Origin: a virus
Taxonomy: Duplodnaviria; Heunggongvirae; Uroviricota; Caudoviricetes
IMG/VR virus record: IMGVR_UViG_3300032050_000035
Length of the DNA stretch: 64,000 nucleotides
Direction: 5' to 3' (one strand)
Each line of letters begins with the position of its first letter. Position 1 is the stretch's first letter. Below, in pieces: positions 1,091-60,393 of this stretch. The position numbers and the translations under genes are program-made. The notes beneath the pieces are model-generated. The model had not been told where the DNA came from and did no database searches. It saw nothing but the letters and a program-made list of their open reading frames with translations.

Positions 1091-2224
1091 TTAATGTATT
1101 TTCTCAACAATAAATTGAATTTTATTTACTTTTATTTCAGATACACTGTTCATTGAGTATACCTTATTAAATACTAAATCTTTATTATCAATCAACTTAT
1201 TCATAAATTCCGTTGTCTTTTTAAATTCATAATCAGCCATATTAAGTCTATTAATGGAATAAAAAGAAGCTTCTTCTGAACCACATTTACCATAAGAAAC
1301 TAATGATGTATTTTTATGAGGACTTTTATCTATCTTATTTAAAAGATCGGTACCTAAAATAGTAAATAATCTTCTCGTTAATTCATAATTAATATTTCCA
1401 AGGTTTTTAAAATTCCTCAATAAATAGTACTCATTTTTATTATCAAATAGAAAATTAACTTTAGTTGTAAATTCGCCAAATCCTTCATCACTTAGATAAC
1501 CAGATATTCTTTGAGCAACTCTATTAACTTTCTCTCCTAAATCTTTAGTATAATTTTCATCAATTGTGATTGTTACATAGAATTTATCTGATTGTTTATT
1601 TGATGTTATTTGTCTATCTGGGAAAAGATATTCCTCCCACTCATCAATTAAAATATCTTCGATATAAACTTTAATATCTTCAGATTTCTCAACATTACTA
1701 AATTTAGCACAAACTATAATTGCTGGATTTTTAAGTAAAAAATCTTCTAAACTCTTTTTATCATCTTTAAAACTAGATAAATCATAAACATCATTATCAT
1801 TTAATCTATCACCAGTAATATAATCACCAACATTAATTTCATCTTTAGTGATGTAAATAAAATCTCTTTTTGTTGGAGTTACTCTACTTGGATCATTACC
1901 ACCTTCCTTTATATAAAAGTTCCATTTGTCTAACATTAAACCAAAACCTAGTTTACTTTTTGGAAAATCTTCTTTAGTTATTTTTCTCCAAGGTTCTTTA
2001 ACAATAGATCCATCTGATCCTGATGAAGATACAATAGATATAAATTTAGAATCATTAGTTTTCTTTTTAATTTCTTTATATCTATAATTAAGTAAAGGAA
2101 ATAATTTGAATATCTTTTTAAGTAAAAATCCACCAATTAAAACCGGTGCGTGTAAAATCATTCTTTTCTCTTCAGGTCTTAACTCCTCATTTATGTAATT
2201 ATCATATTTCTTTATGTGTTTCAT
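1091..2224 (-). CDS. hypothetical protein with N-terminal leader MKHIKKYDNYINEE
   Basis: long ORF; shares the N-terminal leader motif seen on many ORFs in this window. Confidence 0.5.
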   Translation of the reverse strand: MKHIKKYDNYINEELRPEEKRMILHAPVLIGGFLLKKIFKLFPLLNYRYKEIKKKTNDSKFISIVSSSGSDGSIVKEPWRKITKEDFPKSKLGFGLMLDKWNFYIKEGGNDPSRVTPTKRDFIYITKDEINVGDYITGDRLNDNDVYDLSSFKDDKKSLEDFLLKNPAIIVCAKFSNVEKSEDIKVYIEDILIDEWEEYLFPDRQITSNKQSDKFYVTITIDENYTKDLGEKVNRVAQRISGYLSDEGFGEFTTKVNFLFDNKNEYYLLRNFKNLGNINYELTRRLFTILGTDLLNKIDKSPHKNTSLVSYGKCGSEEASFYSINRLNMADYEFKKTTEFMNKLIDNKDLVFNKVYSMNSVSEIKVNKIQFIVEKIH

Positions 2225-2225
2225 A

Positions 2226-3131
2226 TTAAAAGTTTATTTTAGCTCCGATTGTATTAACACCGGTTATTCTAGTGAAATTGAATTGAACATCATGTCCATA
2301 TAAAGAAACTGTTTTGCTGTATGATAGATTAAGAATAGGCATTAAAATCGGTTGGTTATCAGTATCTAATCCTCTAACAAAAAAATAGTTTATATGTAAT
2401 GGAAATTGTGGCTTAGATAATAAATCCAAGTCACTTAAAGATAATTCAGGTAAGTTTTTATTCTCTTTAAACGCTAAGAATTCATTCTCCAACAAAGAAA
2501 CCGATAGAGTACTTTTACCAACTTCATCATTTGTGACAATATTTGGATATTTCTCTATAATAGTATCAGCAAACTCTTTTATAGAACCATCATTTGTTTG
2601 TTCCACTAATGTTGTTGTATCTTTTACAGGATCCTTAGTAATTACCTCTTTCGGCATTGTAGGCTTTAATAAAGAAGAAGCTGCTAAACCAATTGCACCA
2701 ACAGTTGTTGCTATACCCTCATCTTTTTTAACAGTCATCATATCATCTTTAGCGAAGTTATCATAGCTCATAACTTTAGGTTGTTTAGTTTCACCTTCAC
2801 CTTTTGTAAAATCTTGTCTTCTTCTAAAAAGAATATCTTTAAATGATTTTACTTTTTTATCTCTATTTGATCCGTGACTTCTGGATTTTCTCATCGGGAC
2901 CTTTTGAAACACTCTATTAACACCACTTGGATTATAAGGAATTGCTATTTCATCTGGCTCAGAGCTTTTGGAACTTGCCCAATTTGTTCCAATAGTTTGA
3001 CCAGCTAAACCAGAAGCAGCTGATCCATAACCCATACCACCACCGATAAAAGGTCCACCAGTTGCTGATGTTTCATTGATATCATCGTTGTCAAACGATT
3101 CGAATGTTTCATAAGAGTTTAAATATTTCAT
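2226..3131 (-). CDS. hypothetical Gly/Ser-rich protein with N-terminal leader MKYLNSYETFESF
   Basis: ORF; leader motif; Gly-rich N-terminal segment. Confidence 0.5.
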   Translation of the reverse strand: MKYLNSYETFESFDNDDINETSATGGPFIGGGMGYGSAASGLAGQTIGTNWASSKSSEPDEIAIPYNPSGVNRVFQKVPMRKSRSHGSNRDKKVKSFKDILFRRRQDFTKGEGETKQPKVMSYDNFAKDDMMTVKKDEGIATTVGAIGLAASSLLKPTMPKEVITKDPVKDTTTLVEQTNDGSIKEFADTIIEKYPNIVTNDEVGKSTLSVSLLENEFLAFKENKNLPELSLSDLDLLSKPQFPLHINYFFVRGLDTDNQPILMPILNLSYSKTVSLYGHDVQFNFTRITGVNTIGAKINF

Positions 3132-3141
3132 ATTTTATATA

Positions 3142-3396
3142 TTAAAAATTCTTGTCAACTATTTTATAGTCGTATTTATTTTTTTCCGCCCATTGTATAA
3201 CCTTTTCAATATTATCACCAATCTCGAAATTGATATCTAAATCTTTTATTTTAAGGTTATAAATCTTACAAAAAATCACTCTTTTCTTTGGTGTGTAATA
3301 AACATAAAACTCAAACTTTTTCTTCCAAAAAAGAAAACGTCTTTTTTCGCCACTAATTAAAATTAAGTTTAAATATTTTCTAATATTAGTGTTCAT
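3142..3396 (-). CDS. hypothetical small protein
   Basis: ORF in a tight operon-like arrangement. Confidence 0.35.
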   Translation of the reverse strand: MNTNIRKYLNLILISGEKRRFLFWKKKFEFYVYYTPKKRVIFCKIYNLKIKDLDINFEIGDNIEKVIQWAEKNKYDYKIVDKNF

Positions 3397-3449
3397 TTTG
3401 TAAAACCAAAGAGTATTTTACTTATATATAAATAACCGGAAATAAAATT

Positions 3450-4043
3450 ATGAATAACCTAGAAAAACTTGAAATTAAAAGGCTTCTAAAGGAGTTATAT
3501 TTTATAGAGTCAGATTATGAATATAAAAACGAGTTGATAAATCAACTTGAACTTGAATTTATTGACTCGGTTAATAACTATTTAGATAATCATCCGACAC
3601 TAAAAGAGGCTTTTGATGATAAAATTAATCAAAGATTTCAAGAAACTATAAATAAAAAAATAGAAGAATCAAAAAAAGAAGTTGCTATTGTTGAAAAAGA
3701 AATAATAGAAGTTGATCCTAAGGTTAAGAAGCTTTATAGAGAAATAGTTAAGAAGACACACCCAGATAAAGTAAAAGATAGTGACTTAAATGATCTTTAT
3801 ATAGAATCGACTAAATATTATGAGAAAGGTGATATTTTATCAATCTATAAGATATGTGACGAATTAAACTTAGAATATGAGTTTGGTTTAGAAGAAAATG
3901 AGTTGATTAAAAATAAAATAACATCATATAAAGAAAAGATAGAACTTTTACAATCAACGTTTACTTGGAAATGGAGTTCTACTGAAGATAGTTCTAAAAA
4001 TCAAATAATTGAGGATTATATAAAAATACAATTATTTAGATAA
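3450..4043 (+). CDS. J-domain (DnaJ-like co-chaperone) protein
   Basis: KKLYREIVKKTHPDKVKD matches the J-domain helix II/III signature with the HPD tripeptide. Confidence 0.5.
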   Translation: MNNLEKLEIKRLLKELYFIESDYEYKNELINQLELEFIDSVNNYLDNHPTLKEAFDDKINQRFQETINKKIEESKKEVAIVEKEIIEVDPKVKKLYREIVKKTHPDKVKDSDLNDLYIESTKYYEKGDILSIYKICDELNLEYEFGLEENELIKNKITSYKEKIELLQSTFTWKWSSTEDSSKNQIIEDYIKIQLFR

Positions 4044-4665
4044 TATTTAGTTTAACTTTTCTATCATCTAATAAAGTTTGTAGCTCTTCCTTTCTGAAAT
4101 TTTTTTTATAAATATCATTTAACTTTAGAGGATTTTGAAGTTCCCAATCACTTCCGTTACTTGTTGTGTAAATATAATTCTCATCACCATCAACTATTTC
4201 AATTGTTTTTGATGAAAGTTTATCATAGAATCTTTTTACATCATTGTTAACTTTATATAACTTAGAATCACCCCATCTATTCAATGATTCATTCCAAATT
4301 TGGAATATTATGTAAAGTGGATTCTCTAACTCATTTTGTTCTTGGCTAAAGATAAACATAAACTTACATGGTTTGTTTAAAAATGTTTGATAAGTTTCTG
4401 TATCTTCTAATTGAGATTTTTTAAGAGCTAAACTTGATAAAGAATTTATAAACTCAACATTATTAAAAAGAAAATCTAAATCTAGATTATCTTTAAGTTC
4501 TGTTGGTAATTTTAAAGTATCAAATATATCAACCTCTTCAGCGTTGATTGAATTTAAAAGAATATCATGCCATATATTCAGCGATTCCATTAAGTCAACT
4601 GATTGAAAAGTAAGGTCAATAACTAATGACTCTTTATATTTTTTGTATGATTTTATCCACTTCAT
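4036..4665 (-). CDS. hypothetical protein with N-terminal leader MKWIKSYKKYKES
   Basis: ORF; leader motif; TTTAATATATATATT promoter-like motif upstream in the divergent region. Confidence 0.5.
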   Translation of the reverse strand: MKWIKSYKKYKESLVIDLTFQSVDLMESLNIWHDILLNSINAEEVDIFDTLKLPTELKDNLDLDFLFNNVEFINSLSSLALKKSQLEDTETYQTFLNKPCKFMFIFSQEQNELENPLYIIFQIWNESLNRWGDSKLYKVNNDVKRFYDKLSSKTIEIVDGDENYIYTTSNGSDWELQNPLKLNDIYKKNFRKEELQTLLDDRKVKLNII

Positions 4666-4717
4666 TAAAATTGAATAAATATTTTTAATATATATATTAA
4701 AATTTTAATCTCAATAA

Positions 4718-5473
4718 ATGAAGGTTTGTTCTAAATGTAAGATATCAAAAGACTTTAGTAATTTTCATAATTGTTCTAAATCTAAAGATGGTTTAAAATC
4801 AGCTTGTAAAGAGTGTCGTAACTTAGATAGTAAGATTCGAAGAAAAAGTGAGAACTGTAAAATAAAAGAAGAAGAATATAAAAAAAATAATATTGATAAA
4901 ATAAAAAAATATAAAAAGGAATATTATTTAAAAAATAAGGAGGAAATTATAAAAAATAGTAAAAAATACTATACAGATAACAGAGATTATGTGAATAGTA
5001 GGAATAGTATTTATTATTCAAAAAATAAAGAAAATATTTCCAAATATCAAAAAGAGTATTATGTTAATAACAAAGAAATATTAAACGAATATAAAAAAAA
5101 TTGGTTCAATGAGAAATATAAATCTGATGAGATTTTTAAATTAAAGAATAGTATTAGAACTCTAATAAGAACATCTCTTAAAAAAAGTGGATTTGAAAAA
5201 AAATCAAAAAGTGTAGATATATTAGGATGTGATATAGAAGAATTTAAAATTTACTTAGAGAGTAAATTTGAAGATTGGATGTCTTGGGATAATTATGGTA
5301 AATATAAGGGATATCCAAAATCAGGATGGGAGATAGATCATAAAATACCACTAGCTTCCGCTAAAACAGAAGAAGATATTATTAATTTAAATCACTTCAC
5401 CAATTTACAACCACTTTGTGGATATATAAATAGAAATATTAAAAAAGATAAAATATACTATGAAATGGATTAG
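4718..5473 (+). CDS. HNH endonuclease with N-terminal Cys-rich zinc-binding region and Lys-rich linker
   Basis: C-terminal GWEIDHKIPLA...NLQPLC is an HNH motif; N-terminal CSKC...C..C..CKEC. Confidence 0.6.
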   Translation: MKVCSKCKISKDFSNFHNCSKSKDGLKSACKECRNLDSKIRRKSENCKIKEEEYKKNNIDKIKKYKKEYYLKNKEEIIKNSKKYYTDNRDYVNSRNSIYYSKNKENISKYQKEYYVNNKEILNEYKKNWFNEKYKSDEIFKLKNSIRTLIRTSLKKSGFEKKSKSVDILGCDIEEFKIYLESKFEDWMSWDNYGKYKGYPKSGWEIDHKIPLASAKTEEDIINLNHFTNLQPLCGYINRNIKKDKIYYEMD

Positions 5474-6908
5474 AAATTATAAATTATTTAAGGAATCTAA
5501 AGATAATTCAAAATACAACCCGAAAAATATAGTACAAGAGATTTGTATTAGTATGATTTTATTAAATAATGAATTTCTCGATCCTATACTGGATAGAGGT
5601 TTAAAAGCAAGATATTCAGAAGACTCAAGTGTCTTCTTAACAGATTTAAAAAACTTATTATTAGCAAAAAATAGACTTACTCTTGGTAGATTTGTTGATT
5701 CTAAAACTTGTGTAGAGGATGATGAGATTTCTAAAATAAATGGATTCTTTAATGAAGTTGACTTCAGTATAGATAAAGACTGGAATAAACTATCAGATAG
5801 TAGAACAACCGCTAGAAACTTAATGGATAAACTATTAGGTGATGAGAAATTAACTTCTGATAGAATTAGAAAAATTTATTGGATAGGACCTAATAAATCT
5901 AAAGATTTTAATGAAGATATTGTTATAGAAACAACTGAGGGTAAACAATTTTCTATTTTCTTAAATAAAAATCTATCATCACAAAAAACATCATCTTTTA
6001 ATACATTTGGTGATGATTTAATCGGATCTAATATGGAGAAATTGTATTCAGAAGAATACATGGAGAAATGGAATAAGTTAGTTCAAACTTGGGTTACTAT
6101 AATTTATGAAAATGCTGACAAACCAATTCAAAGACATATTGAAAAGTTTATAGATCCACGAAGAGTTGAAACTATGGGTTACTTTGAGTATTTTGATATC
6201 AAACATCAAGATCCAAGATATAAACACTTAGGCGAATTCTTTAGAGAGTTTGATAAGAATATTTTAAAGTTTTCTGAATTATGTGATGAGATATGGAAGA
6301 ATAAAGAAAACTGTTTTATGGATGTTGAAAGAGTTAAAAAAGAATGGTATGAAGCTAAGATTGTAATTCTTAATTCTAAAATTCTTGAAAACTTATTAAC
6401 AAATTCATTAAAAAGTGAATTCTCTGATGATATACAAAAGTTAGATAATGGAATGAAACGAGCTGAAGGTACAGTTAAAATGAAATTATTTAAAACTATT
6501 GTTGAAAAAATGGGTTGTTTGGAAAGAACACTTTATTATGTTTCAAATGGTGGTAATCAATTTAGTGTAATTCCAGCAAGAGATTTCTTTAGAAAGTATT
6601 ACAATGATATTGATTTAAGCTTTGATTACCACGTTAAGTTTAATTATAATGAAGAAGATGAAGAATTAAATGATTTCAAAATCAGTTTGAATTTACAACT
6701 TGATGGTGAAAATTTAATTGATATGATCATATTCGTTAAATTTACTGGTGGTGAACTTTCTTCTAAATTAAGTGCTAAATACAAATTTGAATTAGTTGAT
6801 GACTTCAATTATCGAATTGCTAAGAAAAGACTTTCTGAATTTGAACCTAAAGAGGATCAAGGTGATGAAGAAGATTTTGAAGAATCGGAAGAAGATCAAC
6901 TAAATTAA
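5460..6908 (+). CDS. hypothetical protein with N-terminal leader MKWIRNYKLFKES and acidic C-terminus
   Basis: ORF; leader motif. Confidence 0.5.
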   Translation: MKWIRNYKLFKESKDNSKYNPKNIVQEICISMILLNNEFLDPILDRGLKARYSEDSSVFLTDLKNLLLAKNRLTLGRFVDSKTCVEDDEISKINGFFNEVDFSIDKDWNKLSDSRTTARNLMDKLLGDEKLTSDRIRKIYWIGPNKSKDFNEDIVIETTEGKQFSIFLNKNLSSQKTSSFNTFGDDLIGSNMEKLYSEEYMEKWNKLVQTWVTIIYENADKPIQRHIEKFIDPRRVETMGYFEYFDIKHQDPRYKHLGEFFREFDKNILKFSELCDEIWKNKENCFMDVERVKKEWYEAKIVILNSKILENLLTNSLKSEFSDDIQKLDNGMKRAEGTVKMKLFKTIVEKMGCLERTLYYVSNGGNQFSVIPARDFFRKYYNDIDLSFDYHVKFNYNEEDEELNDFKISLNLQLDGENLIDMIIFVKFTGGELSSKLSAKYKFELVDDFNYRIAKKRLSEFEPKEDQGDEEDFEESEEDQLN

Positions 6909-19987: not shown

Positions 19988-20529
19988 AGTATTTCTCTTA
20001 TCACAATTGGTAAATTCTTTTCTAATTCTTTTACTTTATTACAAATTGTTTCTGGTGTGTCGTGATATTCTACTTTACAAGAGTATTGTTTTATAATTGA
20101 ACCTTTATCATACTCTTCATTAACCCAATGAATTGTTATACCGGTTTCAACTTCCTTTTCTTCAAAAACTTTTTTATGAACATTCATACCCCACATTCCC
20201 TTACCACCAAACTTTGGTAGAAGTGATGGGTGTATGTTAATAATCTTAAACTTATCAGTTAAAACTTTAGGTATCTTTAAAAGAAAACCAGCAAGAACAA
20301 TTAAATCTGGTCTTAATTGTTCTAACTGGTTTATAAAATTATCATTATCTAAATCATCTTTAGATATGATACTAAAATCAATATTCTCATTTTTTGCAAT
20401 GTCTAATACCTTTGCCTCAGAGTAGTTGCAAATTATCTTGGAAATATAAATATCACTATTTCGAAAATAGTTTATTATATTCTGTGCATTAGTTCCATTA
20501 CCAGATGCGAAAATGATAATATTTTTCAT
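19984..20529 (-). CDS. purN: phosphoribosylglycinamide formyltransferase (PurN)
   Basis: MKNIIIFASGNGTNAQNII N-terminus and IHPSLLPKFGGKGMW...GITIHWV core match the PurN family. Confidence 0.8.
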   Translation of the reverse strand: MKNIIIFASGNGTNAQNIINYFRNSDIYISKIICNYSEAKVLDIAKNENIDFSIISKDDLDNDNFINQLEQLRPDLIVLAGFLLKIPKVLTDKFKIINIHPSLLPKFGGKGMWGMNVHKKVFEEKEVETGITIHWVNEEYDKGSIIKQYSCKVEYHDTPETICNKVKELEKNLPIVIREIL

Positions 20530-21281
20530 TACTTACCTAAAACTTCTTTTTGGTAGTATTCATCAAATCCTGATAGTAAATTACTAATGTTGTAAGTTTT
20601 ATCATTAGTGATAACTTCATCAATGAAACCAAATTCTAAAGCTTCGTAAGCGTTTAACCATTTATCTCTACGAGCTGCTTCTAATACGTAATTGAAATCA
20701 CGACCAGAATTTTCAGCTAACATCTTAAATAAGATGTAATTGTATTTTTCAGACTCCATTTGAGAGATACGGTTATCTTCGATATGACCTTGAGCACCAG
20801 AACTAACTTGGTGGATCATAACTTTTGAAAAGTTCAAAGAAGAACGTTTTCCTTTTGTACCAGATGAAAGTAAGATTGAACCCATTGAAGCAGCCATACC
20901 AGTGTTGATTGTTTCAATATCAGAATTGATATATCTCATAACATCAACCATACTCAAACCAGATTTAACAGAACCTCCTGGTGAATCAATGTGCATTTTA
21001 ATATCTCTCTTCTCAATCGAGTCTAAATACATTAACTGTGCTTGAACAACAGTTGACATATTATCATTCACCACACCAGCAACCCAAAGAATACGATCTC
21101 TCATTAAACGTGAGAAGATATCCATTTGTGTTACTCTCATTTCTCTTTCTTCTAAGATGTAAGGAGTTAATGAGTTCTCAGGAGAAATTCCATTCTCTAA
21201 ATTTTTCTCGAAATAGTGAAGGTTCATAGATGAAATACCTTTACCAAGTGCGTACTTTTTGAAATCTTTACCGAAATCCAT
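20529..21281 (-). CDS. ClpP-family (S14) serine protease; candidate prohead/processing protease
   Basis: catalytic Ser context GMAASMGS, His context MIHQ and Asp region RDKWLNAYEALEFGFIDEV match ClpP; extra N-terminal extension. Confidence 0.75.
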   Translation of the reverse strand: MDFGKDFKKYALGKGISSMNLHYFEKNLENGISPENSLTPYILEEREMRVTQMDIFSRLMRDRILWVAGVVNDNMSTVVQAQLMYLDSIEKRDIKMHIDSPGGSVKSGLSMVDVMRYINSDIETINTGMAASMGSILLSSGTKGKRSSLNFSKVMIHQVSSGAQGHIEDNRISQMESEKYNYILFKMLAENSGRDFNYVLEAARRDKWLNAYEALEFGFIDEVITNDKTYNISNLLSGFDEYYQKEVLGK

Positions 21282-23619: not shown

Positions 23620-23652
23620 AAAAACCACCAATTTAATTGGTGGTTTTTTTAT
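23620..23652 (+). terminator. rho-independent terminator after the HU gene
   Basis: hairpin aaaccaccaatt-taa-ttggtggttt plus T-run. Confidence 0.7.
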
Positions 23653-23662
23653 ATATACAAAT

Positions 23663-24172
23663 ATGAAATGGATTAAAAGATTTGAGAGCTTTGATATGCC
23701 TTACTACAATAGTGAATGGGAAAAGTATTTACCAAATGAAATAACTATTATAAAAGGTCAAGATGATTTTACACAAAGAAAAGTATATAAAACGGGAAAC
23801 ATAATGATTCATTCAGATATGGTTCAAATAACTTATACACATGAAGAATATCCAATGGATACGAAAGATGTTGTTCCTGAAGTAGTTGATTTTGATATAC
23901 ACTTTGTTAAAAATGGAAGCATATCTTTAGATGTTGATATTACTTATGGTGACTCAATGGCTAGTGAGTTTAAGATAAAGGGTGATAAAGTTCATGTTAT
24001 ACAATATACTTCTTATGGTTCTAAATTTGATCCATCAAATACAGTTTTTGCTTTAGATGAAAATAGTTTAATGAGTTTTATTAAATTCTTTAATATGTTT
24101 GAGGGAATCGATGTTGATAGAAATGAATTTAATTTTTTAGACGATAATCCCAATAATTATACACCAGATTAA
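23663..24172 (+). CDS. hypothetical protein with N-terminal leader MKWIKRFESF (start moved downstream of the track ORF 23588)
   Basis: the track ORF start at 23588 would include the HU terminator hairpin; ATG at 23663 gives the conserved leader. Confidence 0.5.
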   Translation: MKWIKRFESFDMPYYNSEWEKYLPNEITIIKGQDDFTQRKVYKTGNIMIHSDMVQITYTHEEYPMDTKDVVPEVVDFDIHFVKNGSISLDVDITYGDSMASEFKIKGDKVHVIQYTSYGSKFDPSNTVFALDENSLMSFIKFFNMFEGIDVDRNEFNFLDDNPNNYTPD

Positions 24173-24602: not shown

Positions 24603-26279
24603 ATGAAGTGGATAAAATCAAGAAAAAATTTCCTAAACGAAGCTAAGATTGGTGATGTTATCTTACCATCTCAAAAGAAAGAAGTTATCAGAACTTTTGG
24701 TGAGAAGTGGTTAGACATGGAAGAAATTACAGCTACTGAGAAAATTATTCAAGGTGATTGGGAATTATCTAAAGAAGATAAATTTAAAGTTCTAAACGTT
24801 CTTTTTGGATGTGACGTTGAAGAAGCTCAAAAACAATATGCTGATTTACCAGATGAGTTTATAGCTGCGGTTAATGAGTCTTTATCATTCTTAGAAACTG
24901 CTGATGATACAAGAGATGTTAATATCAAAAGAGCTAAAGAATCTTTGTCTGAATTAGATCTTAAAGATATTGGTATTGATGAGATGATTGCTCTTAACTA
25001 CCCAGTTTTAAGAAAGTTATCTAACGAAACTAACAAAGCTGAAATCATTCAAAGAGATGAAACAGGACGTCCTGTTATGGGTGCCGATGGAAGACCAGTT
25101 AAAATTCAAGTTGAACCAGGTCCTGTATTTGAAAAAAACTTAATCAACTTAGAATCTTTCAGACAAGATTATAACAAATATTATGATAAAAAAGTTGAAG
25201 CTAACTTTAATGATAGAAATATTCAAGCTATTATAAACGTTGTTAAACAGGACCATAATAGTGAGTACAAAACATCATATAAAGTATTTAATAGACCAGT
25301 TCATTTAAAAATATCACACAACCCAAAAGATATTTTAAATATGTCTATTTCAAAATTCTACGCATCTTGTCAACATTTATACTCAGGAGGTTATAGAAGT
25401 CAACTTATTGGAAACGTTTTTGATCCACATTCAATTCCAGCTTTCTTAATTGTTAAAACTCCTATTTATAATGGTGATGATTTACTTTCTGAGCAATTAC
25501 CAATTGCTAGAAGTATGGTTAGATGGTTAGATGGATATGATAAGAATGAGAAAGGTGCTATCTTCTTTGATAGAACTTACCCTGATAGATTAAGAGAAGT
25601 TATGTATGAAATGCTAACTAAATATACTGGAATGGAACCTATCGGAACTCAAGCTAAATCAAATGGATTGAAATATACTTTCTCTCCTGATATACCTGCT
25701 CAAGCACAAGGTGATATTAGAGATCCTTATATGGATTCATTAGGATTAAACAGAAAGAAATATGTTGGTATCAACACAACAAGATTAACTACATCAATGA
25801 GTGGATTTGATAAAATGATCATTTCTCCACAAGCTAAAGTTAAAGAGTTAATCGTTGATTCACCATCTGTACCTGAAGCATTATTCTCATTACCATTGAA
25901 ATTAGATTGGATTAAATTTAAGTTTATCAATATCAAAGAAATGCCAGATACAAGTAAGTTTGATTGTAAATCATTTGCTTTTGATAAATGTAAATTTTCT
26001 AGTGAAGATATTCAAAAAGTTATTGCTGATCACAAAGATATGAATAAATTACAATTAACATCTTGTGAAGTTGATGACTTAAAATTAAGTGGTTTAAATG
26101 TTGAAGAATTACAATTAGTTTATACTACAACTGATTCATTAGCTAGTGTTTTAGACGGAGCTACTTTCAAAAAATTAGTTGTTTCTGGTGATTTAATGTC
26201 AGATAAAGCAAATAAAGAATACATCAATAACTTAAAAAGAGGTGGTGTTAAAATTGAAACTGTTGGTTTAGTACTATGA
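24603..26279 (+). CDS. hypothetical protein (558 aa) with N-terminal leader MKWIKSRKNFLNEAK
   Basis: ORF; leader motif. Confidence 0.5.
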   Translation: MKWIKSRKNFLNEAKIGDVILPSQKKEVIRTFGEKWLDMEEITATEKIIQGDWELSKEDKFKVLNVLFGCDVEEAQKQYADLPDEFIAAVNESLSFLETADDTRDVNIKRAKESLSELDLKDIGIDEMIALNYPVLRKLSNETNKAEIIQRDETGRPVMGADGRPVKIQVEPGPVFEKNLINLESFRQDYNKYYDKKVEANFNDRNIQAIINVVKQDHNSEYKTSYKVFNRPVHLKISHNPKDILNMSISKFYASCQHLYSGGYRSQLIGNVFDPHSIPAFLIVKTPIYNGDDLLSEQLPIARSMVRWLDGYDKNEKGAIFFDRTYPDRLREVMYEMLTKYTGMEPIGTQAKSNGLKYTFSPDIPAQAQGDIRDPYMDSLGLNRKKYVGINTTRLTTSMSGFDKMIISPQAKVKELIVDSPSVPEALFSLPLKLDWIKFKFINIKEMPDTSKFDCKSFAFDKCKFSSEDIQKVIADHKDMNKLQLTSCEVDDLKLSGLNVEELQLVYTTTDSLASVLDGATFKKLVVSGDLMSDKANKEYINNLKRGGVKIETVGLVL

Positions 26280-28183
26280 GAAATTTAAAACATATAAAAT
26301 TATTTGAAAGTTTTTCTTTATTAGAAGCATTTGCTTCAACTAGTCTTAATAAAGTTTTTAACTATATTAAAACAAAAGAGAGTAAAGAAAAGTTTTCTAA
26401 CTATGTTAGAGCAATTGCGGGACAGATTGATGTCCCGTCAACTGCTATTACAGATGAATACTTTGAATACCTACCGTATAAAGATGCTATTAGAAAGAAT
26501 GTTTCTATGGATCTTGTTGATTGTAAAGCAACTTCTATTCAAGCTTTTGGAGATCCAACAAAAAGAGGTGGTAAAGGTGTACCAGGTGATGTTTGTACCA
26601 AGGGTAAATTAAAAAAGGCTTATGGTGCTTCAGGTAGAACAAGAGAGTATGATTGTCCTATTTGTAATGGTACTGGTAAAGTAAGTCCTAGTGGTCAATT
26701 AAAATATCTTAAATTCTGGTTAAACTCAAAAGGTGATTTTATTGGTGTTACAGCTGTTGATGGTTTATACCATGCTAATAAGAGAGATGTAAATCAATTT
26801 AAACAAATTGATATAACTGAAGAAGTTAAAGCTGTTTTAAATAGAGAAGGTAGAAATGATGCAACTGTTAAAGCGGATTTAGAAGCTATCGAATCTAAAT
26901 ATGGTTTAGAATCGGGTAAAACTAGATTAGCTACAGAAGGTTTAACAAATTATAGATGGAGAGATCCAAGTGGAATAACAATAGGAACTTATTGGAAAGA
27001 CAGAGATGGTAAGGTTTATATAGCTTCTGGTAATAGTCGTTTAGATGATAAAAGACAAAGACCGGTTGGTGTTAAGTGGAAAGAGTTTGGAAGTTATTTA
27101 GCTCAATTACCTTATATTTTTAATGCTGTTACTGCGAATATTGATAGAGGAATTATAAAAATATTAACTGATATTGAAGAAAAAGATGATGTTCTTTATA
27201 ATGTTGGTGTAAACTTCACATATCCTAAAAGTGGTGGTGGAAGTTTCTCTTTGCAAGATAGTTTAGATAAATCATTTTTAAGTGAGGCTGAGTTTGCTAT
27301 TATATTTGATTTCAAGAAGTTTGAGGATGATATGATTGCTAATAATACAAAAAAACTTTCAACTATCAAAGATGAAAGAACTGAAAGAAAAAAGGGTATT
27401 ATTGGAGGTAAATTAGGTATCTCTGATAAAGATATTAGAAATGCTAATTTAGAAAGATATATAAAAGCTATTTCTGATGTTGATATAACAACTGGTTTTG
27501 ATAGATTAGTTAAGAAACTACCTAGATTCTTTGGTGGTAGATTATCATTCTTTTATATTTATAGTGAGAAAAACTTTATTTCATATAGAAATACTATATT
27601 GAATTTATTACAATTCATGAGAGCTGAAGATGATGATGAGAAAAAAAATATTTCAGATAAAATATCTGATCGAATAAAAGAAACTTTTAATAACAATAAA
27701 ATACACTCTGAGAGATTAGATAGAAGATTGGCATCATATAAAGATATTTTAGCTGATAGATCTGTTACATCAGAAAATGATAATGAAAAAATTTTCTATA
27801 AATCTCAATTAGATATCTTAAATAAAATTATGCAGTTGAGTGCTAAAATATCTAATAAAATATCACAACAGGAAGTTGAGTGTATTGAAGACTTTGAAAT
27901 TATATACACTAAGATAAATGGTATATATAACGCACTCAAATCTGATAGAACGGGACTATTTAAGGGTAGTGGAGGACTTCAATATGTAGGTAGTGGAGGA
28001 CTTCAATATGTAGATTATTTAATTGATTATGATGATGTAAATAGAACAATTAGGTCATTTGAATCTTATTATGGAAGACCAACACCTACACCGACTGATT
28101 TAGGTTCAACTAATTTTAATAGATATGTTGAAGATACTTTAAATAAGTTAGATTATATGATACGATTAGTAGAAAGAATATAA
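26276..28183 (+). CDS. hypothetical protein (635 aa) with N-terminal leader MRNLKHIKLFESF; contains a single DnaJ-like CxxCxGxG motif and a 24-nt in-frame tandem duplication
   Basis: ORF; leader; DCPICNGTGKV; duplicated GSGGLQYV. Confidence 0.5.
   Translation: MRNLKHIKLFESFSLLEAFASTSLNKVFNYIKTKESKEKFSNYVRAIAGQIDVPSTAITDEYFEYLPYKDAIRKNVSMDLVDCKATSIQAFGDPTKRGGKGVPGDVCTKGKLKKAYGASGRTREYDCPICNGTGKVSPSGQLKYLKFWLNSKGDFIGVTAVDGLYHANKRDVNQFKQIDITEEVKAVLNREGRNDATVKADLEAIESKYGLESGKTRLATEGLTNYRWRDPSGITIGTYWKDRDGKVYIASGNSRLDDKRQRPVGVKWKEFGSYLAQLPYIFNAVTANIDRGIIKILTDIEEKDDVLYNVGVNFTYPKSGGGSFSLQDSLDKSFLSEAEFAIIFDFKKFEDDMIANNTKKLSTIKDERTERKKGIIGGKLGISDKDIRNANLERYIKAISDVDITTGFDRLVKKLPRFFGGRLSFFYIYSEKNFISYRNTILNLLQFMRAEDDDEKKNISDKISDRIKETFNNNKIHSERLDRRLASYKDILADRSVTSENDNEKIFYKSQLDILNKIMQLSAKISNKISQQEVECIEDFEIIYTKINGIYNALKSDRTGLFKGSGGLQYVGSGGLQYVDYLIDYDDVNRTIRSFESYYGRPTPTPTDLGSTNFNRYVEDTLNKLDYMIRLVERI
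27961..28008 (+). repeat. perfect 24-nt tandem duplication (ggtagtggaggacttcaatatgta x2) inside the CDS
   Basis: seen directly; encodes GSGGLQYV twice. Confidence 0.9.
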
Positions 28184-30199: not shown

Positions 30200-30324
30200 A
30201 TTCTATATATTAAAGATTAAATCTCACTTTTTAATGACCAAAATAATTATTTTCAAAATAATTAAATAAAATAACAAAGGGAGAGATAATTATTATATAT
30301 ATAATTAAAAATAAAAATAATTAT

Positions 30325-31984: not shown

Positions 31985-32002
31985 AGATTAAATATATAAG
32001 AA

Positions 32003-40597: not shown

Positions 40598-40613
40598 CAT
40601 TTTTATATATAAG
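40598..40613 (+). promoter_or_regulatory. CATTTTTATATATAAG promoter-like motif
   Basis: recurrent motif immediately before the 40616 start. Confidence 0.3.
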
Positions 40614-40615
40614 TT

Positions 40616-42331
40616 ATGAGTAATATTTTAAGATATGATAGTTTCCTAAACGAGAGTAAACTCAATTTACTACTTGAAGGTAATATGGTTTATAAAGATG
40701 ATTTCAAAGAAATTTTGAAGTCGGTTAATAGTCCACTTTCAAAAGAGATTTTAGATTTAGAGGGTGTTGACGTTGATGTTGATACAAACTTTATTGATAT
40801 TTCTGATGATAAAGACAACTTTATACAATTTAAATCCGATAAAAAGTCTAAAAACTCTTGTGTTATAATTGATTTTGGCGCATCATTGTCTATCTTATCA
40901 AAAGAAATATTTACATCATTTGCTAAATTATTTGAAGATCCAAGAGTCGAAAAAGGTTTTTTGAATTGGTATGAATTACTTCAAAGAAACCAAAAAGCTA
41001 CTATTACTAAACAGATAACAAGTATTGATGATTTTAATGATGAGGATGTAAAAAATAGATTAAAATGGTATCTTGATCAAGGACGTAAAATTTATCATAT
41101 AAGATTTAATAGAAGTGGTGAGAATATTGATCTTATCATTGAAGATTATGGTCTTAAAATTGGTGAGGGAGCGGTTTCCTCACAAGAAGTTAGAGTTGGA
41201 TCATTCGTTCAATCACTATTGAAGAAAGCTGGTAAAGAAGTTAAAGGAACTGAAGTTGAAGATTTTGTAACTAAGTTTTCAATTGCCACTAAAGCTAAAA
41301 AAGAAAATATATTCTCTGATTTTGAATTGGTTGAAGGTGATGATATTAAAAAGTTTTATTATGAAGGTAATTATTATCGAGGTGGTAATCATACTTTAGG
41401 AGCATCTTGTATGAGACATGCTAGATGTCAAGACTACTTAAACATATATTCTAAAAATCCTAAAAGTGTTGGATTAGTTATATTAAAATCTAAAGAAGAT
41501 CCAACTAAAATTATAGGTAGAGCTCTTCTTTGGAAAAAACCAGAATATATGCCATGGGATGGTGGTGATGATGAAGGAGTAATAACGAAATATAATTTAG
41601 TAAAACATACCGAATCAGAAGGAAAACCATTTATGGATAGAATTTATGTGAGTAATTCACCAGACCAAGAATTGTTTATTAAATACGCAATTAAAATGGG
41701 ATATGTTTATAAGAAAAATCAAAATATTTCAGAGGAAGAGTTTATGTTTAATGGTTCTGATTCAAACATCGGAACAATTAAAGTTGATTTAGAAATGAAC
41801 GGCTTTAGTAAATACCCTTATTTAGATACTCTTTGTTATTATGAATGGGATTATGGATTCTTAACAAATGAGCAAAAATTAGTAATAAATAGTAACTATT
41901 ACGAACTAAGAGAAACTGATGGTGGTAATGGAGAAGAATGTGAAAGATGTGGTGGTGATGAAAGAATTGATTGCTATGAATGTGAGGGTGATGGAAGATA
42001 TGATTGTGAAGAATGTGGTGCCTCTGGTGAAGTAGAATGTTCTAATTGTGATGGACACGGTACTCTACCTTGTGATAACTGCGAAGGAACTGGAAAAGAA
42101 GACTGTTCTAGTTGTGATGGAACTGGAGAAGATGATGAGGGAAATGAGTGTTCTTATTGTAGTGGATCAGGTAAACAAGATTGTTCTGAATGTGAGGGTG
42201 ACTGTACTAACGAATGTGATAGATGTGGTGGTGATGGTACCAGAGAGTGTGGTGATTGTGATGGTGAAGGTAGAATTTGGTGTAATCGATGTGATGGTGA
42301 TGGTAGAATTGATTGTCCAGATTGTACATAA
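40616..42331 (+). CDS. paralogous family A protein, member 3, with leader MSNILRYDSFLNES and a C-terminal array of about 9 DnaJ-type CxxCxGxG zinc-finger repeats
   Basis: HTLGASCM, GRALLWKKPE, FMDRIYV, YPYLDTLCY blocks; repeats CERCGGDERIDCYECEGDGRYDCEECGASGEVEC... Confidence 0.6.
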   Translation: MSNILRYDSFLNESKLNLLLEGNMVYKDDFKEILKSVNSPLSKEILDLEGVDVDVDTNFIDISDDKDNFIQFKSDKKSKNSCVIIDFGASLSILSKEIFTSFAKLFEDPRVEKGFLNWYELLQRNQKATITKQITSIDDFNDEDVKNRLKWYLDQGRKIYHIRFNRSGENIDLIIEDYGLKIGEGAVSSQEVRVGSFVQSLLKKAGKEVKGTEVEDFVTKFSIATKAKKENIFSDFELVEGDDIKKFYYEGNYYRGGNHTLGASCMRHARCQDYLNIYSKNPKSVGLVILKSKEDPTKIIGRALLWKKPEYMPWDGGDDEGVITKYNLVKHTESEGKPFMDRIYVSNSPDQELFIKYAIKMGYVYKKNQNISEEEFMFNGSDSNIGTIKVDLEMNGFSKYPYLDTLCYYEWDYGFLTNEQKLVINSNYYELRETDGGNGEECERCGGDERIDCYECEGDGRYDCEECGASGEVECSNCDGHGTLPCDNCEGTGKEDCSSCDGTGEDDEGNECSYCSGSGKQDCSECEGDCTNECDRCGGDGTRECGDCDGEGRIWCNRCDGDGRIDCPDCT

Positions 42332-42346: not shown

Positions 42347-42730
42347 ATGAAACACTTAAAAAAGTTTAATGAGAATATTGAAGATGATAGTTTTGACTAC
42401 GACTATGTAAAATTATGCTTTATTGATTTAATAGAGTCTGATAAAATCAAATATATTGATGATGAAGATTTTGTTTTAATAGAGTTTGAAAAGTTACCAG
42501 AGCCAAAAGTAGATTATCGAAATAATTGGGATGGATCACCTCTTATGAAAATTGAAGATTATATAAAAGATCTCCAAATTACAAAAGATATAATGAATGA
42601 TATAAATAGTGGTATTAAAAAAGTAAAAGATGAATATCCAAATTACGAATGTGTAATAACATATGATGATGGTATGGAATATGGAGAACTTATTAGAAAT
42701 CCACAAATAAAAGTATCTATATTTGAATAA
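42347..42730 (+). CDS. hypothetical protein with leader MKHLKKFNENIEDDSF
   Basis: ORF; leader motif. Confidence 0.45.
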   Translation: MKHLKKFNENIEDDSFDYDYVKLCFIDLIESDKIKYIDDEDFVLIEFEKLPEPKVDYRNNWDGSPLMKIEDYIKDLQITKDIMNDINSGIKKVKDEYPNYECVITYDDGMEYGELIRNPQIKVSIFE

Positions 42731-53112: not shown

Positions 53113-53127
53113 GTTTAATATATAATC
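53113..53127 (+). promoter_or_regulatory. GTTTAATATATAATC promoter-like motif
   Basis: recurrent motif immediately before the 53129 start. Confidence 0.3.
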
Positions 53128-53128: not shown

Positions 53129-53761
53129 ATGAAATATTTAAAATCATTTAAAGAGAGTATTGCTGGTGTTGATACAAATTTAGAAAGAATAGAAAGATGT
53201 AAAGATCTTAACGAACAGGAATTCTTAGACTTATTAAGACAAAATTGTAAAAACTTCTCATTTAGTAATGATTTGTTGTGGAGAGGTAAAAATAAAGTTA
53301 GTAAGTCTGATTTACAATTATTTCAACCAAGTCCTCGTAATGCTAGACCAGTTGCATTTCCTAAATTTTTTAATGACATAGCTGATGATCCTAATTTCCC
53401 AGTTAAAAGAAAGAATTCGTTGATTGGTGGTACCAATCTTGATACACTGAAATTTTTAGTTGATAGTGATATGTTCTTAGTTATACCTTATGATAATTCA
53501 GAAATTGTTTTTTGTCCAATTGTTGACTTATGGGCTTTATCTAATGATAGACCTGGTGGAAGTGAATTAGTTGGTAGAAAACAAATTAGTAAAGATAATT
53601 TTATAATGGTTAATTATACTCCAGATTTTAAAGTTCCTTTAGAAGACTTATCTAAATTAGATAAAGCTAATTTACGTGGAGGTGTTGAGTTTTTCACATC
53701 AAGTCCTTGTTTGTTAGTACACGAATCAAAGGTTGATTGGTTAAGAAACTCTTTAGATTAA
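53129..53761 (+). CDS. hypothetical protein with leader MKYLKSFKESIAG
   Basis: ORF; leader motif. Confidence 0.5.
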   Translation: MKYLKSFKESIAGVDTNLERIERCKDLNEQEFLDLLRQNCKNFSFSNDLLWRGKNKVSKSDLQLFQPSPRNARPVAFPKFFNDIADDPNFPVKRKNSLIGGTNLDTLKFLVDSDMFLVIPYDNSEIVFCPIVDLWALSNDRPGGSELVGRKQISKDNFIMVNYTPDFKVPLEDLSKLDKANLRGGVEFFTSSPCLLVHESKVDWLRNSLD

Positions 53762-58394: not shown

Positions 58395-58556
58395 TTATAT
58401 CTTTTCTTTGTGGTGGTCTCCAACCTTCAACCTTAATAAAACTCTCATCAAAAGAATATATCCAATTGACTTAACATCTTCATAAATATCACAAACCTTT
58501 TGTATATCAATATCTTCTTTCTTGAAGTAAGCTTCGTATAACTTTAAGTATCTCAT
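58395..58556 (-). CDS. small (53 aa) ORF missing from the ORF track, with leader MRYLKLYEAY and its own TTTAATATATAA motif
   Basis: translated by hand from the minus strand; preceded by the promoter-like motif and the 58575 terminator of the upstream gene. Confidence 0.35.
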   Translation of the reverse strand: MRYLKLYEAYFKKEDIDIQKVCDIYEDVKSIGYILLMRVLLRLKVGDHHKEKI

Positions 58557-58574
58557 TCATTATATATTAAATAA

Positions 58575-59249: not shown

Positions 59250-59251
59250 AT

Positions 59252-59560
59252 TTATTTTTTAAATGATCTTATATGACTTAATAAATCTTGTACAAAATAA
59301 ATCTCAGATTGATGAAACCCATCAATCTCCAATATCTTCATAGACTTCTCTAAACTTCTTTCAAATATTCTATTGTAGAATAGTGCTTTCTCACCATCAA
59401 ACTTCTGATTGAACTTATTAACAGCATCTCTGATGTAATCACATTGCTTATAAAGTCTAAGTAATGAACCACTTTCTGATTCCTTAACTATGAATTCAGA
59501 TAACACCTCAGCAATGTTAACTAACTTCATGAAATTCTTATCTTTTAATAAATGTTCCAT
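59252..59560 (-). CDS. hypothetical protein
   Basis: ORF. Confidence 0.4.
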   Translation of the reverse strand: MEHLLKDKNFMKLVNIAEVLSEFIVKESESGSLLRLYKQCDYIRDAVNKFNQKFDGEKALFYNRIFERSLEKSMKILEIDGFHQSEIYFVQDLLSHIRSFKK

Positions 59561-59561
59561 C

Positions 59562-59807
59562 TTAATCAGTTAAACGACCAACCCAAGTTCCAATTAAAAC
59601 CCCTGATATGGCAGCAATCGCACCAGTCAACATTCTTGGCATAAATAAACCAGTTACAAACTCGATTGTGAAAATTGATGTCCATAATAAAAGACATAGT
59701 ATTATTACAACTAAAATACCCCTAAACCCTTTATCTGGTCCCTTTCCAATAAAATTTCTAATAAAATTTTCCATACTATCTATATAAAAATAAACAAAGA
59801 GAAACAA
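59562..59807 (-). CDS. small membrane protein
   Basis: two hydrophobic helices. Confidence 0.4.
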   Translation of the reverse strand: MFLFVYFYIDSMENFIRNFIGKGPDKGFRGILVVIILCLLLWTSIFTIEFVTGLFMPRMLTGAIAAISGVLIGTWVGRLTD

Positions 59808-59945
59808 ATATTACAGTGATTATAAATCCCCATAACAACCCATGTAGTGCTGTTATGAATATAAAGAATAAAAGACTACCTAAAATAGGTCTCAATTCCT
59901 TCAATAAAAATCTCTTTAGTTTCATATAACAAATATACTAAATTA

Positions 59946-59960
59946 TTTTAATATATACAC
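59946..59960 (+). promoter_or_regulatory. TTTTAATATATACAC promoter-like motif
   Basis: recurrent motif immediately before the 59962 start. Confidence 0.3.
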
Positions 59961-59961
59961 T

Positions 59962-60393
59962 ATGAAATATCTAAAACTATTTGAAAAATTCACTATTGAA
60001 GAACTCATTGAAAATAATAAAAAGGCTAATGAAATACTAGAAGATATTAAAAGTATATCATATATCATAGAAGATGAGGGATTTGATATTCAATATACCT
60101 TTCAATTCAGTAAAGATTGGAAACAATCATTTATAAATGTTGATGATTATAACACATCAAGAGATGCTGGTAGAGCTAGAAAAAAGATAAATGGAATTTC
60201 TTTAGTTATTCACAAAAATTCGATTGAGACATCTAAAAAAACTAGACTTGATTTTTCACCTTCTGATAATGAAATACTTAATAATTTTATTGTTCTTCTG
60301 AAAGAACACTTAGATTATATAGATGGAAAATCTATTCTAAGTGGGCGCGGTAATTTTAATAATTCAATGAGTATTTTAATTCAATTTGGTTAA
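59962..60393 (+). CDS. hypothetical protein with leader MKYLKLFEKFTIEEL
   Basis: ORF; leader motif. Confidence 0.5.
   Translation: MKYLKLFEKFTIEELIENNKKANEILEDIKSISYIIEDEGFDIQYTFQFSKDWKQSFINVDDYNTSRDAGRARKKINGISLVIHKNSIETSKKTRLDFSPSDNEILNNFIVLLKEHLDYIDGKSILSGRGNFNNSMSILIQFG

Follow-up and report, generated by a model that had tools for sequence, protein, structure and literature searches.

Unrelated proteins of a Mahaphage-group megaphage share a short N-terminal leader that is probably a T4-type capsid-targeting propeptide

Why should about one gene in seven of a viral genome segment begin with a common short peptide? The question is raised by a 64,000-nucleotide stretch of DNA (hereafter, the window) from IMG/VR virus record IMGVR_UViG_3300032050_000035 (Caudoviricetes), in which an initial annotation, made from the sequence alone, had noticed a 12-residue N-terminal leader and proposed it as a candidate capsid-targeting or processing signal resembling that of bacteriophage T4. 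The window has a G+C content of 27% and falls within the Mahaphage group. Three genomes of uncultured phages, LR745206, LR756502 and LR756504 (634-642 kb), come nearest to it among the records and are syntenic with it; in the syntenic part the proteins of LR745206 are 40-65% identical to those of the window. In the 'Mahaphage' clade, for which Bacteroidetes hosts have been predicted, these genomes are the largest (Al-Shayeb et al. 2020, PMC7162821). The analysis described below indicates that the leader is probably a T4-type capsid-targeting propeptide of megaphages of Bacteroidota, which would dock cargo proteins on the prohead scaffold and be removed by a gp21-like protease, the cargo then being ejected.

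The leader was confirmed to be real and not a product of chance. A strict pattern, M[KR][YHWF][ILV][KRN].[FYW], matched 11 of the 97 called gene starts in the window and 11 of its 2,257 ATG triplets (both strands), all 11 being gene starts, while 0.016 matches were expected from N-terminal composition (P ~2e-28) and a mean of 0.03 was obtained when residues 2-13 were shuffled within each protein. A position-specific scoring matrix (PSSM) was trained on LR745206 only and then applied to the window with a reporting threshold of 5. It found 12 leaders with scores of at least 8, all at gene starts (named here by their first coordinate: 1091, 2226, 4036, 29048 and 58395 on the minus strand; 5460, 23663, 24603, 33121, 42347, 53129 and 59962 on the plus strand), the highest score being that of 42347, and no other ATG of the window reached 5. 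All 15 open reading frames (ORFs) that the initial annotation had listed were found in their places and with the N-termini it gave (Table 1), the five on the minus strand (1091-2224, 2226-3131, 4036-4665, 29048-30199 and 58395-58556) having been reported there without their strand. Its count of at least 16 bearers has to be lowered to these 12 strong cases plus three variants which the ungapped PSSM does not report, namely 26276 (an offset leader) and 40616 and 32003 (a T4-like sub-class). The weaker matches it had added, a Nudix gene (31373), a Prs-like gene (46316) and 28215, scored below 5 and were left out of the count.

The relative LR745206 (635 kb, complete; pieced together from 14 segments) was scanned over 955 ORFs and 24,996 ATGs. 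The strict pattern was present at 79 of the 955 ORFs, and 79 of its 81 matches among all ATGs were gene starts; the PSSM raised the number to about 98 bearer genes, around 10% of all genes, the additional ones including in-frame downstream methionines where the naive ORF had begun too early. Two window genes gave similar corrections: the leader of 23663 marks an ATG start, so that the automatic ORF call from a GTG at 23588 is too long, and in the LR745206 ortholog of 24603 (41% identity) MRWIKNRD is found within the naive ORF, at an internal Met, and marks the true start. Among the 79 bearers of LR745206, conservation spans residues 1 to about 12 and then stops abruptly. Position 4 was occupied by Leu (58), Ile (19) or Val (2) and position 7 by Phe (47) or Tyr (32), although the selecting pattern itself requires these classes. 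Orthologs of window bearers retained the leader, as seen for 4036 (68% identity; MKWIKSYKKYKES in the window and MRYIKSYKTFKES in LR745206) and for 5460 (63-66% identity in LR745206 and LR756502; MKWIRNYKLFKES in the window and MKWLRNFELFKEA in the relatives); even the offset leader of 26276 was preserved, as MKDLKHIKLFEAF.

Conservation of the leader is at the peptide level. The codons used at the conserved positions matched genome-wide use (AAA for 74% of Lys2 in both; 72% versus 74% at Lys5), those for Leu4 were spread over five (TTA, TTG, CTT, CTA and CTG), and the changes between orthologous leaders were conservative (W/Y/H, K/R, F/Y, I/L). Since synonymous codon use at the conserved positions equals that of the genome as a whole, selection acts on the peptide, and the argument of the initial annotation against a shared DNA element holds quantitatively. 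The leader is also virus-specific. When 596 Gb of bacterial and archaeal genomes were scanned, its back-translated pattern occurred at 11 places, several of which lay on contigs assembled from metagenomes; the much smaller IMG/VR yielded no fewer than 119 loci, and at least 312 ORF starts in the listed loci had a PSSM score of 12 or more. The leader is thus essentially absent from cellular genomes, and we rejected its explanation as a host habit. The cellular matches included three loci (L139, L140 and L144) from a single 'Cellvibrionaceae' metagenome-assembled genome (MAG) and one (L137) from a 'Rickettsiaceae' MAG, several being contigs of single MAGs; such contigs may be mis-binned megaphage contigs. 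In the first 50 kb of the Tenacibaculum jumbo phage PTm1 (31% G+C, Flavobacteriia host) no leader was found, and when a cultured relative with a virion proteome was sought, the bearers matched uncultured megaphage records only.

The proteins behind the leader are, as had been claimed, mostly unrelated. BLASTP within the window revealed one three-member family of paralogs (29048, 32003 and 40616) and one pair with the first 36 residues in common (58395 and 59962); no other pair of bearers matched at E <= 0.01. Once the leader was removed, the 79 bearers of LR745206 fell into 70 BLAST clusters, 63 of them singletons, and among the matches listed 266 full-length IMG/VR bearers formed 111 clusters. 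Known domains were scarce: the 79 bearers matched two Pfam families (a peptidoglycan peptidase M15 and a DUF), in contrast to the 35 families matched by 79 non-bearer controls of the same 60-380 residue range, which included thymidylate synthase, methylases, GrpE, gp32, RNase P and guanylate kinase. Apart from an intein, the window bearers had no Pfam match, nor did they match any PHROG, and a Pfam search with 10 recurrent IMG/VR bearer families was equally negative. With few exceptions the leader is carried by fast-evolving proteins that lack known domains, a class of cargo that, by analogy, resembles the hypervariable internal proteins of T4. The initial annotation had counted enzymes among the bearers; this stands for the intein-split P-loop NTPase (33121), the sole real enzyme-like bearer in the window, and falls for the Nudix and Prs-like proteins, which do not score.

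The leader is also modular. In the AlphaFold model of the 29048 product (mean predicted local distance difference test score, pLDDT, 81), residues 1-20 were of low confidence and detached from the globular domain, and the leader is missing from a Cellulophaga phage homolog of that domain. Being leaderless and annotated as hypothetical only, the Cellulophaga phage homologs are silent on virion association. The largest bearer family, with at least 63 members at no fewer than 18 loci among the matches listed, consists of leader-bearing proteins of about 222 residues arranged in tandem arrays of up to seven copies in 6 kb (IMG/VR loci L018, L044, L048, L054, L055, L059, L079 and others); its members contain leucine-rich-repeat (LRR)-like units (MKHIKPYKIFESxSPNFPTTREEVIEVC...SLEGSPQTV.G.F.C) and they have the look of effectors or receptor-binding proteins undergoing diversification.

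We then compared the leader with the capsid-targeting sequence (CTS) of T4. The T4 record gives the N-termini of the internal proteins as MKTFKEFTSTT (IPI), MKTYQEFIAEARVG (IPII) and MKTYQEFIAEASVV (IPIII), the last two reading MKTYQEFIAE↓A (arrows mark known or candidate cleavage sites), and the megaphage consensus is M-K-[YH]-[LI]-K-x-[FY]...E↓S. Both keep a common register: Met1 and Lys2, then a position 4 that is hydrophobic or aromatic, Lys5 (in IPI), Phe7 and a Glu near position 10. In T4 the propeptides are 10-19 residues long, with residues 4 and 7 serving mainly in targeting (Tyr4 and Phe7 in IPIII) and residues 8 and 10 in processing, an Asp at position 10 preventing cleavage while leaving targeting intact (PMC9026906); they target proteins to the scaffold core, are removed by the gp21 protease and suffice to package foreign proteins (PMC9026906; PMC5694885; PMC8442874; PMC3012670). 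A second, even more T4-like leader class, with [YWF] followed two residues on by [FY], was represented by MRKYNQFILE in the window (32003) and by 12 gene starts in LR745206, among them MIKKYLQFIKEA, MISKYNQFINEE and MILKFNKFILES. A regular expression for this class recovered T4 ipII and ipIII and nothing in the control PTm1. The LR745206 ortholog of 40616 begins with the T4-like MIKKYLDFIKES, and distant homologs of 29048 begin MLKYDEFILES, MFKYDEFILES and MIKYDEFIIES. Both classes were present in a 50-kb sample of LR756504, and the T4-like class alone in a 50-kb sample of the 735-kb LR756501.

The strongest point for reading the leader as a propeptide comes from the junction between leader and protein in the alignments of the 2226-3131 family and the capsid protein. 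The presequence of the LR745206 capsid protein is 44 residues long; it begins with KQKAMKKWSPVLE, which aligns with T4 gp23 (KAELLNKWKPLLE), and its end, ...DWMSEYAEFHSINE44 (DWMSEYAEFHSINE↓NAYANASNVSGMGAVVAAQPASLAGTT), follows the leader's own pattern; the corresponding site of T4 gp23 reads AQAFGSFLTE65↓AEIGG, the cut falling after FLTE65↓A at the end of a propeptide of 65 residues (PMC5694885). The segment that follows the leader of 2226-3131 (MKYLNSYETFESFDNDDINE↓TSATGGPFIGGGMGYGSAASGLAGQTIG) resembles the N-arm of the major capsid protein, and its LR745206 ortholog G554784 and the bearer G93266 match residues ~48-100 of the capsid protein. In G93266 the leader MRYLKPYKKFIE12 (MRYLKPYKKFIE↓NADGSSTSGMGAVSSAQPGGLAGTT) is followed, directly after its Glu, by the segment that follows the presequence in the capsid protein (58% identity over 38 residues). 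All 286 homologs of 2226-3131 kept the segment TSATGGP..GMGAVVSAQPSGLAGTTIG, while what preceded it varied between a 12-20 residue leader (MIYLENFESFSINE↓, MKYLKYYNIEEPLNEDEISE↓, MIKNFNEFINEN↓, MINNFTEFIQEINEM↓), a leader together with an inserted ~70-residue domain (...EEFIPGEISE↓) and a leaderless, capsid-protein-like presequence of ~43 residues (...NKENKLLED↓). In the examined examples an acidic residue stood at the junction or one residue before it. A swappable N-terminal piece, an acidic residue at or near the junction and conservation that resumes at once are together the signature of a boundary between propeptide and mature protein. The predicted mature N-terminus of the 2226-3131 product, after Glu, is TSATGGPFIGGGMGYGSAASGLAGQTIGTNWASSK, and those predicted for the 29048-30199 product are SQNELEFLNETR or TRFYFLTNFHK.

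A candidate cleavage site was common to the bearers at large. A hydrophobic-x-Glu motif ended at residues 5-25 in 75 of the 79 LR745206 bearers as against 392 of 816 non-bearers (48%; odds ratio 20), peaking sharply at residues 9 and 11-12 in the bearers and without a comparably sharp peak in the others. At this candidate site P3 was Phe (33), Ile (17), Leu (11) or Tyr (10) and P1' mostly Ser. In 13 of the 15 window bearers the first such site ended at residues 8-20; 23663 had none.

The machinery that such a propeptide would need was sought in LR745206, which carries a T4-type virion module with homologs of terminase gp17 (E = 3.9e-50), sheath gp18, tube gp19 and gp4, and with Pfam matches to Portal_T4 (E = 2.7e-57) and the major capsid protein Gp23 (E = 1.8e-26); its head module lies at 193-202 kb. 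The ORF upstream of the capsid gene (Table 1) is a probable gp21-type prohead protease fused to a scaffold. It matched Peptidase_S77 at E = 0.005, T4 gp21 in BLASTP at E = 0.001 (VVNRNKRLYP...GELNHP aligned with VKNRNERIYT...GEFDHP) and a gp21 profile in hhalign at E = 8.9e-5 over 109 columns, His85 and Ser140 of T4 aligning with the family-invariant H72 and S127, and one homolog (P0185) has a precomputed PF03420 assignment. Behind the protease domain come 11 tandem 14-residue repeats, Y-S-E-Y-[LIV]-A-E↓N-[LV]-D-K-N-I, then an acidic tract and a C-terminal domain; AlphaFold drew the repeat region as one helix of ~215 residues. Each repeat is near the T4 CTS core Y-Q-E-F-I-A-E↓A, as would be expected of a scaffold chopped after Glu by a gp21-type enzyme. 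Metagenomes contained more than 4,000 homologs of this protease-scaffold, the best 120 of which were all at least 69% identical, indicating that the phage group is very abundant.

The genes of the bearers also have upstream sequence in common. A TTAATATATA box, a candidate late promoter, was enriched upstream of bearers, lying 9-15 (or ~25-40) nucleotides before many start codons. TATATA stood 9-15 nucleotides from the ATG in 8 of the 15 window bearers versus 7 of 82 other genes (p = 1.7e-4), and in LR745206 the box preceded 27 of 79 bearers versus 99 of 876 other genes (odds ratio 4.1). Bearers that lack it are mostly the second gene of a tandem pair. The box was also found 20-45 nucleotides upstream of all seven T4-like virion genes checked in LR745206 and was missing at ClpP. 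A box at the -10 distance implies leaderless or near-leaderless mRNAs, which is of note given the translation initiation factor IF3 encoded by the phage (35246-35779, minus strand).

Taken together, these observations point to the following scheme, which we regard as probable. The first 9-20 residues of a bearer would form a short, flexible, amphipathic element with aromatic or hydrophobic residues at positions 3, 4, 7 and 10 and a hydrophobic-x-Glu end. During head assembly this element would dock its cargo onto the prohead scaffold core, the long helix of 14-residue repeats fused to a gp21-type serine protease; once the gp23-type shell had closed, the protease would cut after Glu in the scaffold repeats, the capsid presequence and the leader ends, and the cargo would remain in the head and be ejected with the DNA. 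Several points weigh against the scheme. Docking, cleavage, packaging and ejection of the bearers are all steps that we infer from sequence. No virion gene was found among the genes of the 64-kb window, the head module and the protease-scaffold having been seen in the relative. The protease assignment is statistically weak (the Pfam match is below the cut-off and the hhalign probability is 60%), the candidate had no match in the PDB by sequence or profile search, and its AlphaFold model (mean pLDDT 52) is unreliable in the protease domain (30-55); given the negative PDB searches and the unreliable model, the assignment is probable and not proven. The P3 residue of the 'FNES' sub-class is Phe, Leu or Ile being typical of T4, and the invariant Glu21 of the 29048 family is kept in homologs almost without a leader and so may be structural and not a cleavage site. 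As the TATATA box also precedes non-virion genes (the MGS-AICARFT fusion, Nudix and GIY-YIG), it makes co-expression with head genes suggestive and does not prove late timing. Lastly, some 100 cargo species per genome are far beyond documented cases, and some bearers are large (558 and 635 residues) and one is a P-loop NTPase.

Among other explanations, the one that survives best, though we hold it unlikely, is that the leader is an amphipathic docking helix for another phage assembly, such as a replication compartment, a membrane or the tail and baseplate line, with no relation to the head. A short amphipathic peptide on a flexible tether, as in the model of 29048, would suit such a role and has look-alikes in the peptides that direct cargo into encapsulins and microcompartments; the bearers are also numerous for capsid cargo, and in the relative a conserved bearer adjoins the tail sheath gene. 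That bearer (LR745206 172013-172579, locus L006:25013-25579, minus strand) has 188 residues, is coiled-coil by eye, belongs to a family with at least 12 independent IMG/VR loci among the matches listed, and could be an assembly or scaffold-like component. Set against this, every sequence link leads to a head component, whether to the presequence of the capsid protein, to the repeats of the scaffold or to the internal proteins of T4, and no compartment-shell gene was among the Pfam matches in the window or in the sampled parts of the relative. Neither is the leader a Sec, Tat or lipoprotein secretion signal, as no hydrophobic h-region followed it, residues 13-40 consisting of 22% Asp plus Glu. 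N-termini of the window that do resemble signals, such as MKRILFLLTLLLSFS at 36530-38254, are of another kind.

A role for ClpP is a good deal less probable still. The initial annotation had drawn attention to the ClpP gene of the window, and the leader might be imagined as an N-terminal degradation or recognition tag for this protease, working with a host or phage unfoldase in timed protein turnover. The ClpP is full-length, its ortholog in LR745206 is kept at 80% identity, a paralog also being present there, and one class of N-terminal motifs recognized by ClpX is reportedly loosely like a Met-basic-hydrophobic-hydrophobic start. Turnover by ClpP would leave unexplained the T4 CTS register, the alignment of the leader Glu with the capsid junction, the swaps of presequence and the CTS-like repeats of the scaffold, and we found no linkage of ClpP to the head module or to the bearers: it is an ordinary ClpP beside PurN, with its ortholog at 75 kb in the relative, ~120 kb away from the head genes. 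Most likely it does not belong to the leader system, and the gp21-type protease is the better candidate for the processing enzyme. Of the original proposal, then, the T4-like targeting and processing signal is supported, in part, by the register, residues 4 and 7, the T4-type head module, the gp21-like protease-scaffold and the presequence swaps, and the contribution of ClpP is not. Two outcomes that the initial annotation had named as refuting it, a broad occurrence of the leader on host proteins and bearers that are full-length paralogs of one family, were looked for and not found.

No more credible is common descent, by which the leader would be the conserved N-terminus of one ancient, extremely diverged superfamily and not a signal. 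Some paralogy does exist, in the family and the pair of the window and in the tandem arrays of IMG/VR loci, but the clustering of the leader-stripped bearers led us to reject a single paralog family: the window bearers range from 53 to 635 residues, the same core domains occur with the leader, with another presequence or with none, and conservation ends abruptly after about residue 12. The weakest explanation, a nucleotide or translation constraint (a downstream element of leaderless mRNAs behind a -10 TATATA, or a 5' recombination cassette), draws on the very short or absent 5' untranslated regions implied by the box position in eight window bearers and on the clustering of bearers in variable regions and tandem arrays, and is largely refuted by the codon usage and conservative replacements described above, by the seven window non-bearers that have the box at the same distance and no leader, by the 37 of 79 LR745206 bearers without a box within 45 nucleotides, and by the absence of the leader from the sampled part of PTm1, a phage of similar G+C and host class, so that we consider it highly improbable.

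The capsid-targeting propeptide thus remains the preferred reading, and its likeness to known systems can be stated more exactly. As on the non-essential internal proteins of T4, a short propeptide-like peptide with Met-Lys, a hydrophobic or aromatic position 4, Phe or Tyr at 7 and a terminal Glu is found on unrelated, fast-evolving proteins; the relative encodes a portal of the gp20 type, a gp23-type capsid protein and a probable protease like gp21; and the scaffold and capsid presequence carry aromatic-x-x-aromatic-[IL]-x-Glu. The systems differ in that T4 has a handful of CTS proteins and the 635-kb relative about 100; in that the dominant megaphage class adds an aromatic residue at position 3, has Lys5 and in many cases closes with F-N-E↓S or [IL]-F-E↓S instead of I-A-E↓A; in the fusion of the megaphage protease to a repeat scaffold, T4 having separate genes 21 and 22; and in the Bacteroidota host, the function of the megaphage leader being a predicted one. 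In the giant phages phiKZ, 201phi2-1 and SPN3US, likewise, diverged homologs of gp21 cleave behind the Glu of a short motif, and many internal or ejected head proteins are processed, including paralogs with identical N-terminal stretches (PMC5694885; PMC9026906). Their propeptides are mostly far longer, several exceeding 100 residues, their motif is [S/A/G]-x-E and no single consensus spans unrelated proteins, whereas in the megaphage one short consensus is reused some 100 times. In the literature library that was searched, no paper had any of six leader strings or linked huge phages to capsid targeting. The cargo-loading peptides of encapsulins and the encapsulation peptides of microcompartments are also short, terminal and amphipathic, sit on flexible linkers and dock unrelated cargo inside a protein shell, which in encapsulins has the HK97 fold of phage capsids. 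Proteolysis does not usually remove these peptides, and their shells neither contain DNA nor eject anything.

Table 1. Leader-bearing genes of the window, with the ClpP gene and the protease-scaffold gene of LR745206. Arrows mark candidate cleavage sites; positions are those of the window unless stated.
Gene	Strand	Residues	Leader	Leader codons	TATATA box	PSSM score	Remarks
1091..2224	-	377	MKHIKKYDNYINE↓E	2189-2224		17.2	Second gene of tandem pair with 2226-3131; hydrophobic-x-Glu site ends at residue 13; no Pfam or PHROG match
2226..3131	-	301	MKYLNSYETFESFDNDDINE↓TSATGGP...	3096-3131	3136-3141	20.7	
4036..4665	-	209	MKWIKSYKKYKE↓S	4630-4665	4689-4694	15.6	
5460..6908	+	482	MKWIRNYKLFKE↓S	5460-5495	5423-5428	15.6	
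23663..24172	+	169	MKWIKRFESF	23663-23698	23652-23657	13.4	
24603..26279	+	558	MKWIKSRKNFLNE↓A	24603-24638		8.3	First gene of tandem pair with 26276-28183
26276..28183	+	635	MRNLKHIKLFESF, MRNLKHIKLFE↓SF			-2.0 (ungapped)	Offset leader variant
29048..30199	-	383	MKHIKSFKVFE↓SQNELEFLNE↓T	30164-30199	30204-30209		
32003..33124	+	373	MRKYNQFILE↓K		31993-31998		T4-like leader
33121..34098	+		MRYIKEFFNYIKE↓E			9.7	P-loop NTPase N-extein (GAPGIGK) split by intein; continues in ORF 34111-35142
40616..42331	+	571	MSNILRYDSFLNES, MSNILRYDSFLNE↓S		40606-40611		Variant leader
42347..42730	+	127	MKHLKKFNE↓N	42347-42382		24.2	Second gene of tandem pair with 40616-42331
53129..53761	+	210	MKYLKSFKE↓S	53129-53164	53119-53124	22.4	No Pfam or PHROG match
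58395..58556	-	53	MRYLKLYE↓A	58521-58556	58561-58566	10.2	
59962..60393	+	143	MKYLKLFE↓KF	59962-59997	59952-59957	19.2	
ClpP, 20529..21281	-						Full-length CLP_protease domain, E = 2.7e-53; neighbours PurN and small ORFs
gp21-like protease-scaffold, LR745206 198546-200669 (locus L007:2546-4669)		707					ORF directly upstream of capsid gene

Besides the bearers, the window carries auxiliary genes for IF3, HU, an M50 peptidase, ClpP, PurN, Nampt, Nudix, PARG, Dam, guanylate kinase and homing endonucleases. Near the IF3 gene, 36530-38254 (minus strand) combines a signal-like N-terminus (MKRILFLLTLLLSFS) with a type IX secretion (Por_Secre_tail) sorting domain in one phage protein, which agrees with a Bacteroidetes host. 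The intein of the P-loop NTPase (Pfam Intein_splicing and LAGLIDADG_3) sits inside the Walker A motif (GAPGIGK↓C, the arrow here marking the insertion point); a stop codon (34096-34098) interrupts its frame, which is taken up again at the ATG at 34111, and this could reflect decay of the homing endonuclease, a split arrangement or a mistake in assembly. Genes of NAD and ADP-ribose metabolism are scattered over the window, namely a Nampt-type phosphoribosyltransferase (42817-44397), a PRTase-like gene (46316-47089), a Nudix hydrolase (31373-31984) and a PARG-type glycohydrolase (60390-61106), the last convergent with bearer 59962-60393. The gene at 12977-14680 (plus strand) does not encode a complete PurH; an MGS-like domain and the first ~60 residues of AICARFT/IMPCHase are fused there to an AAA ATPase domain. 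Two adjoining genes on the minus strand, 62037-62336 and 62333-62632, encode 99-residue paralogs that are 56% identical, and the 20 nucleotides upstream of 62037-62336 are the same as those upstream of the next gene, 61714-62040.

If the leader is a capsid-targeting propeptide, the consequences would reach beyond this window. The T4 CTS is known for a handful of proteins, and the scale of about 100 bearers per genome is unprecedented. We advance more tentatively, as a possibility that we would not yet bet on, that in Mahaphage-type megaphages one reusable N-terminal tag loads some 100 proteins, ~10% of the coding repertoire, into the capsid to be injected with the DNA. The CTS-like repeats of the protease-scaffold fusion suggest that targeting would work through a tag that mimics the scaffold repeat. 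Most of the tagged proteins would be orphan and rapidly diversifying, including the tandem arrays of LRR-like proteins, and the leader would be a sequence-only marker of the 'injectome' of uncultured huge phages, which should be rich in anti-defence and host-takeover effectors; IPI, which T4 injects, is a classic anti-restriction protein. A simple sequence rule would then predict virion cargo, anti-defence candidates and, for metaproteomes, mature N-termini in phages that cannot be cultured, and the leader would offer a second, orthogonal tag for engineered protein delivery by phage capsids. Giant genome size and the roles of orphan genes would become partly open to testing, many of these orphans being pre-made, injected effectors.

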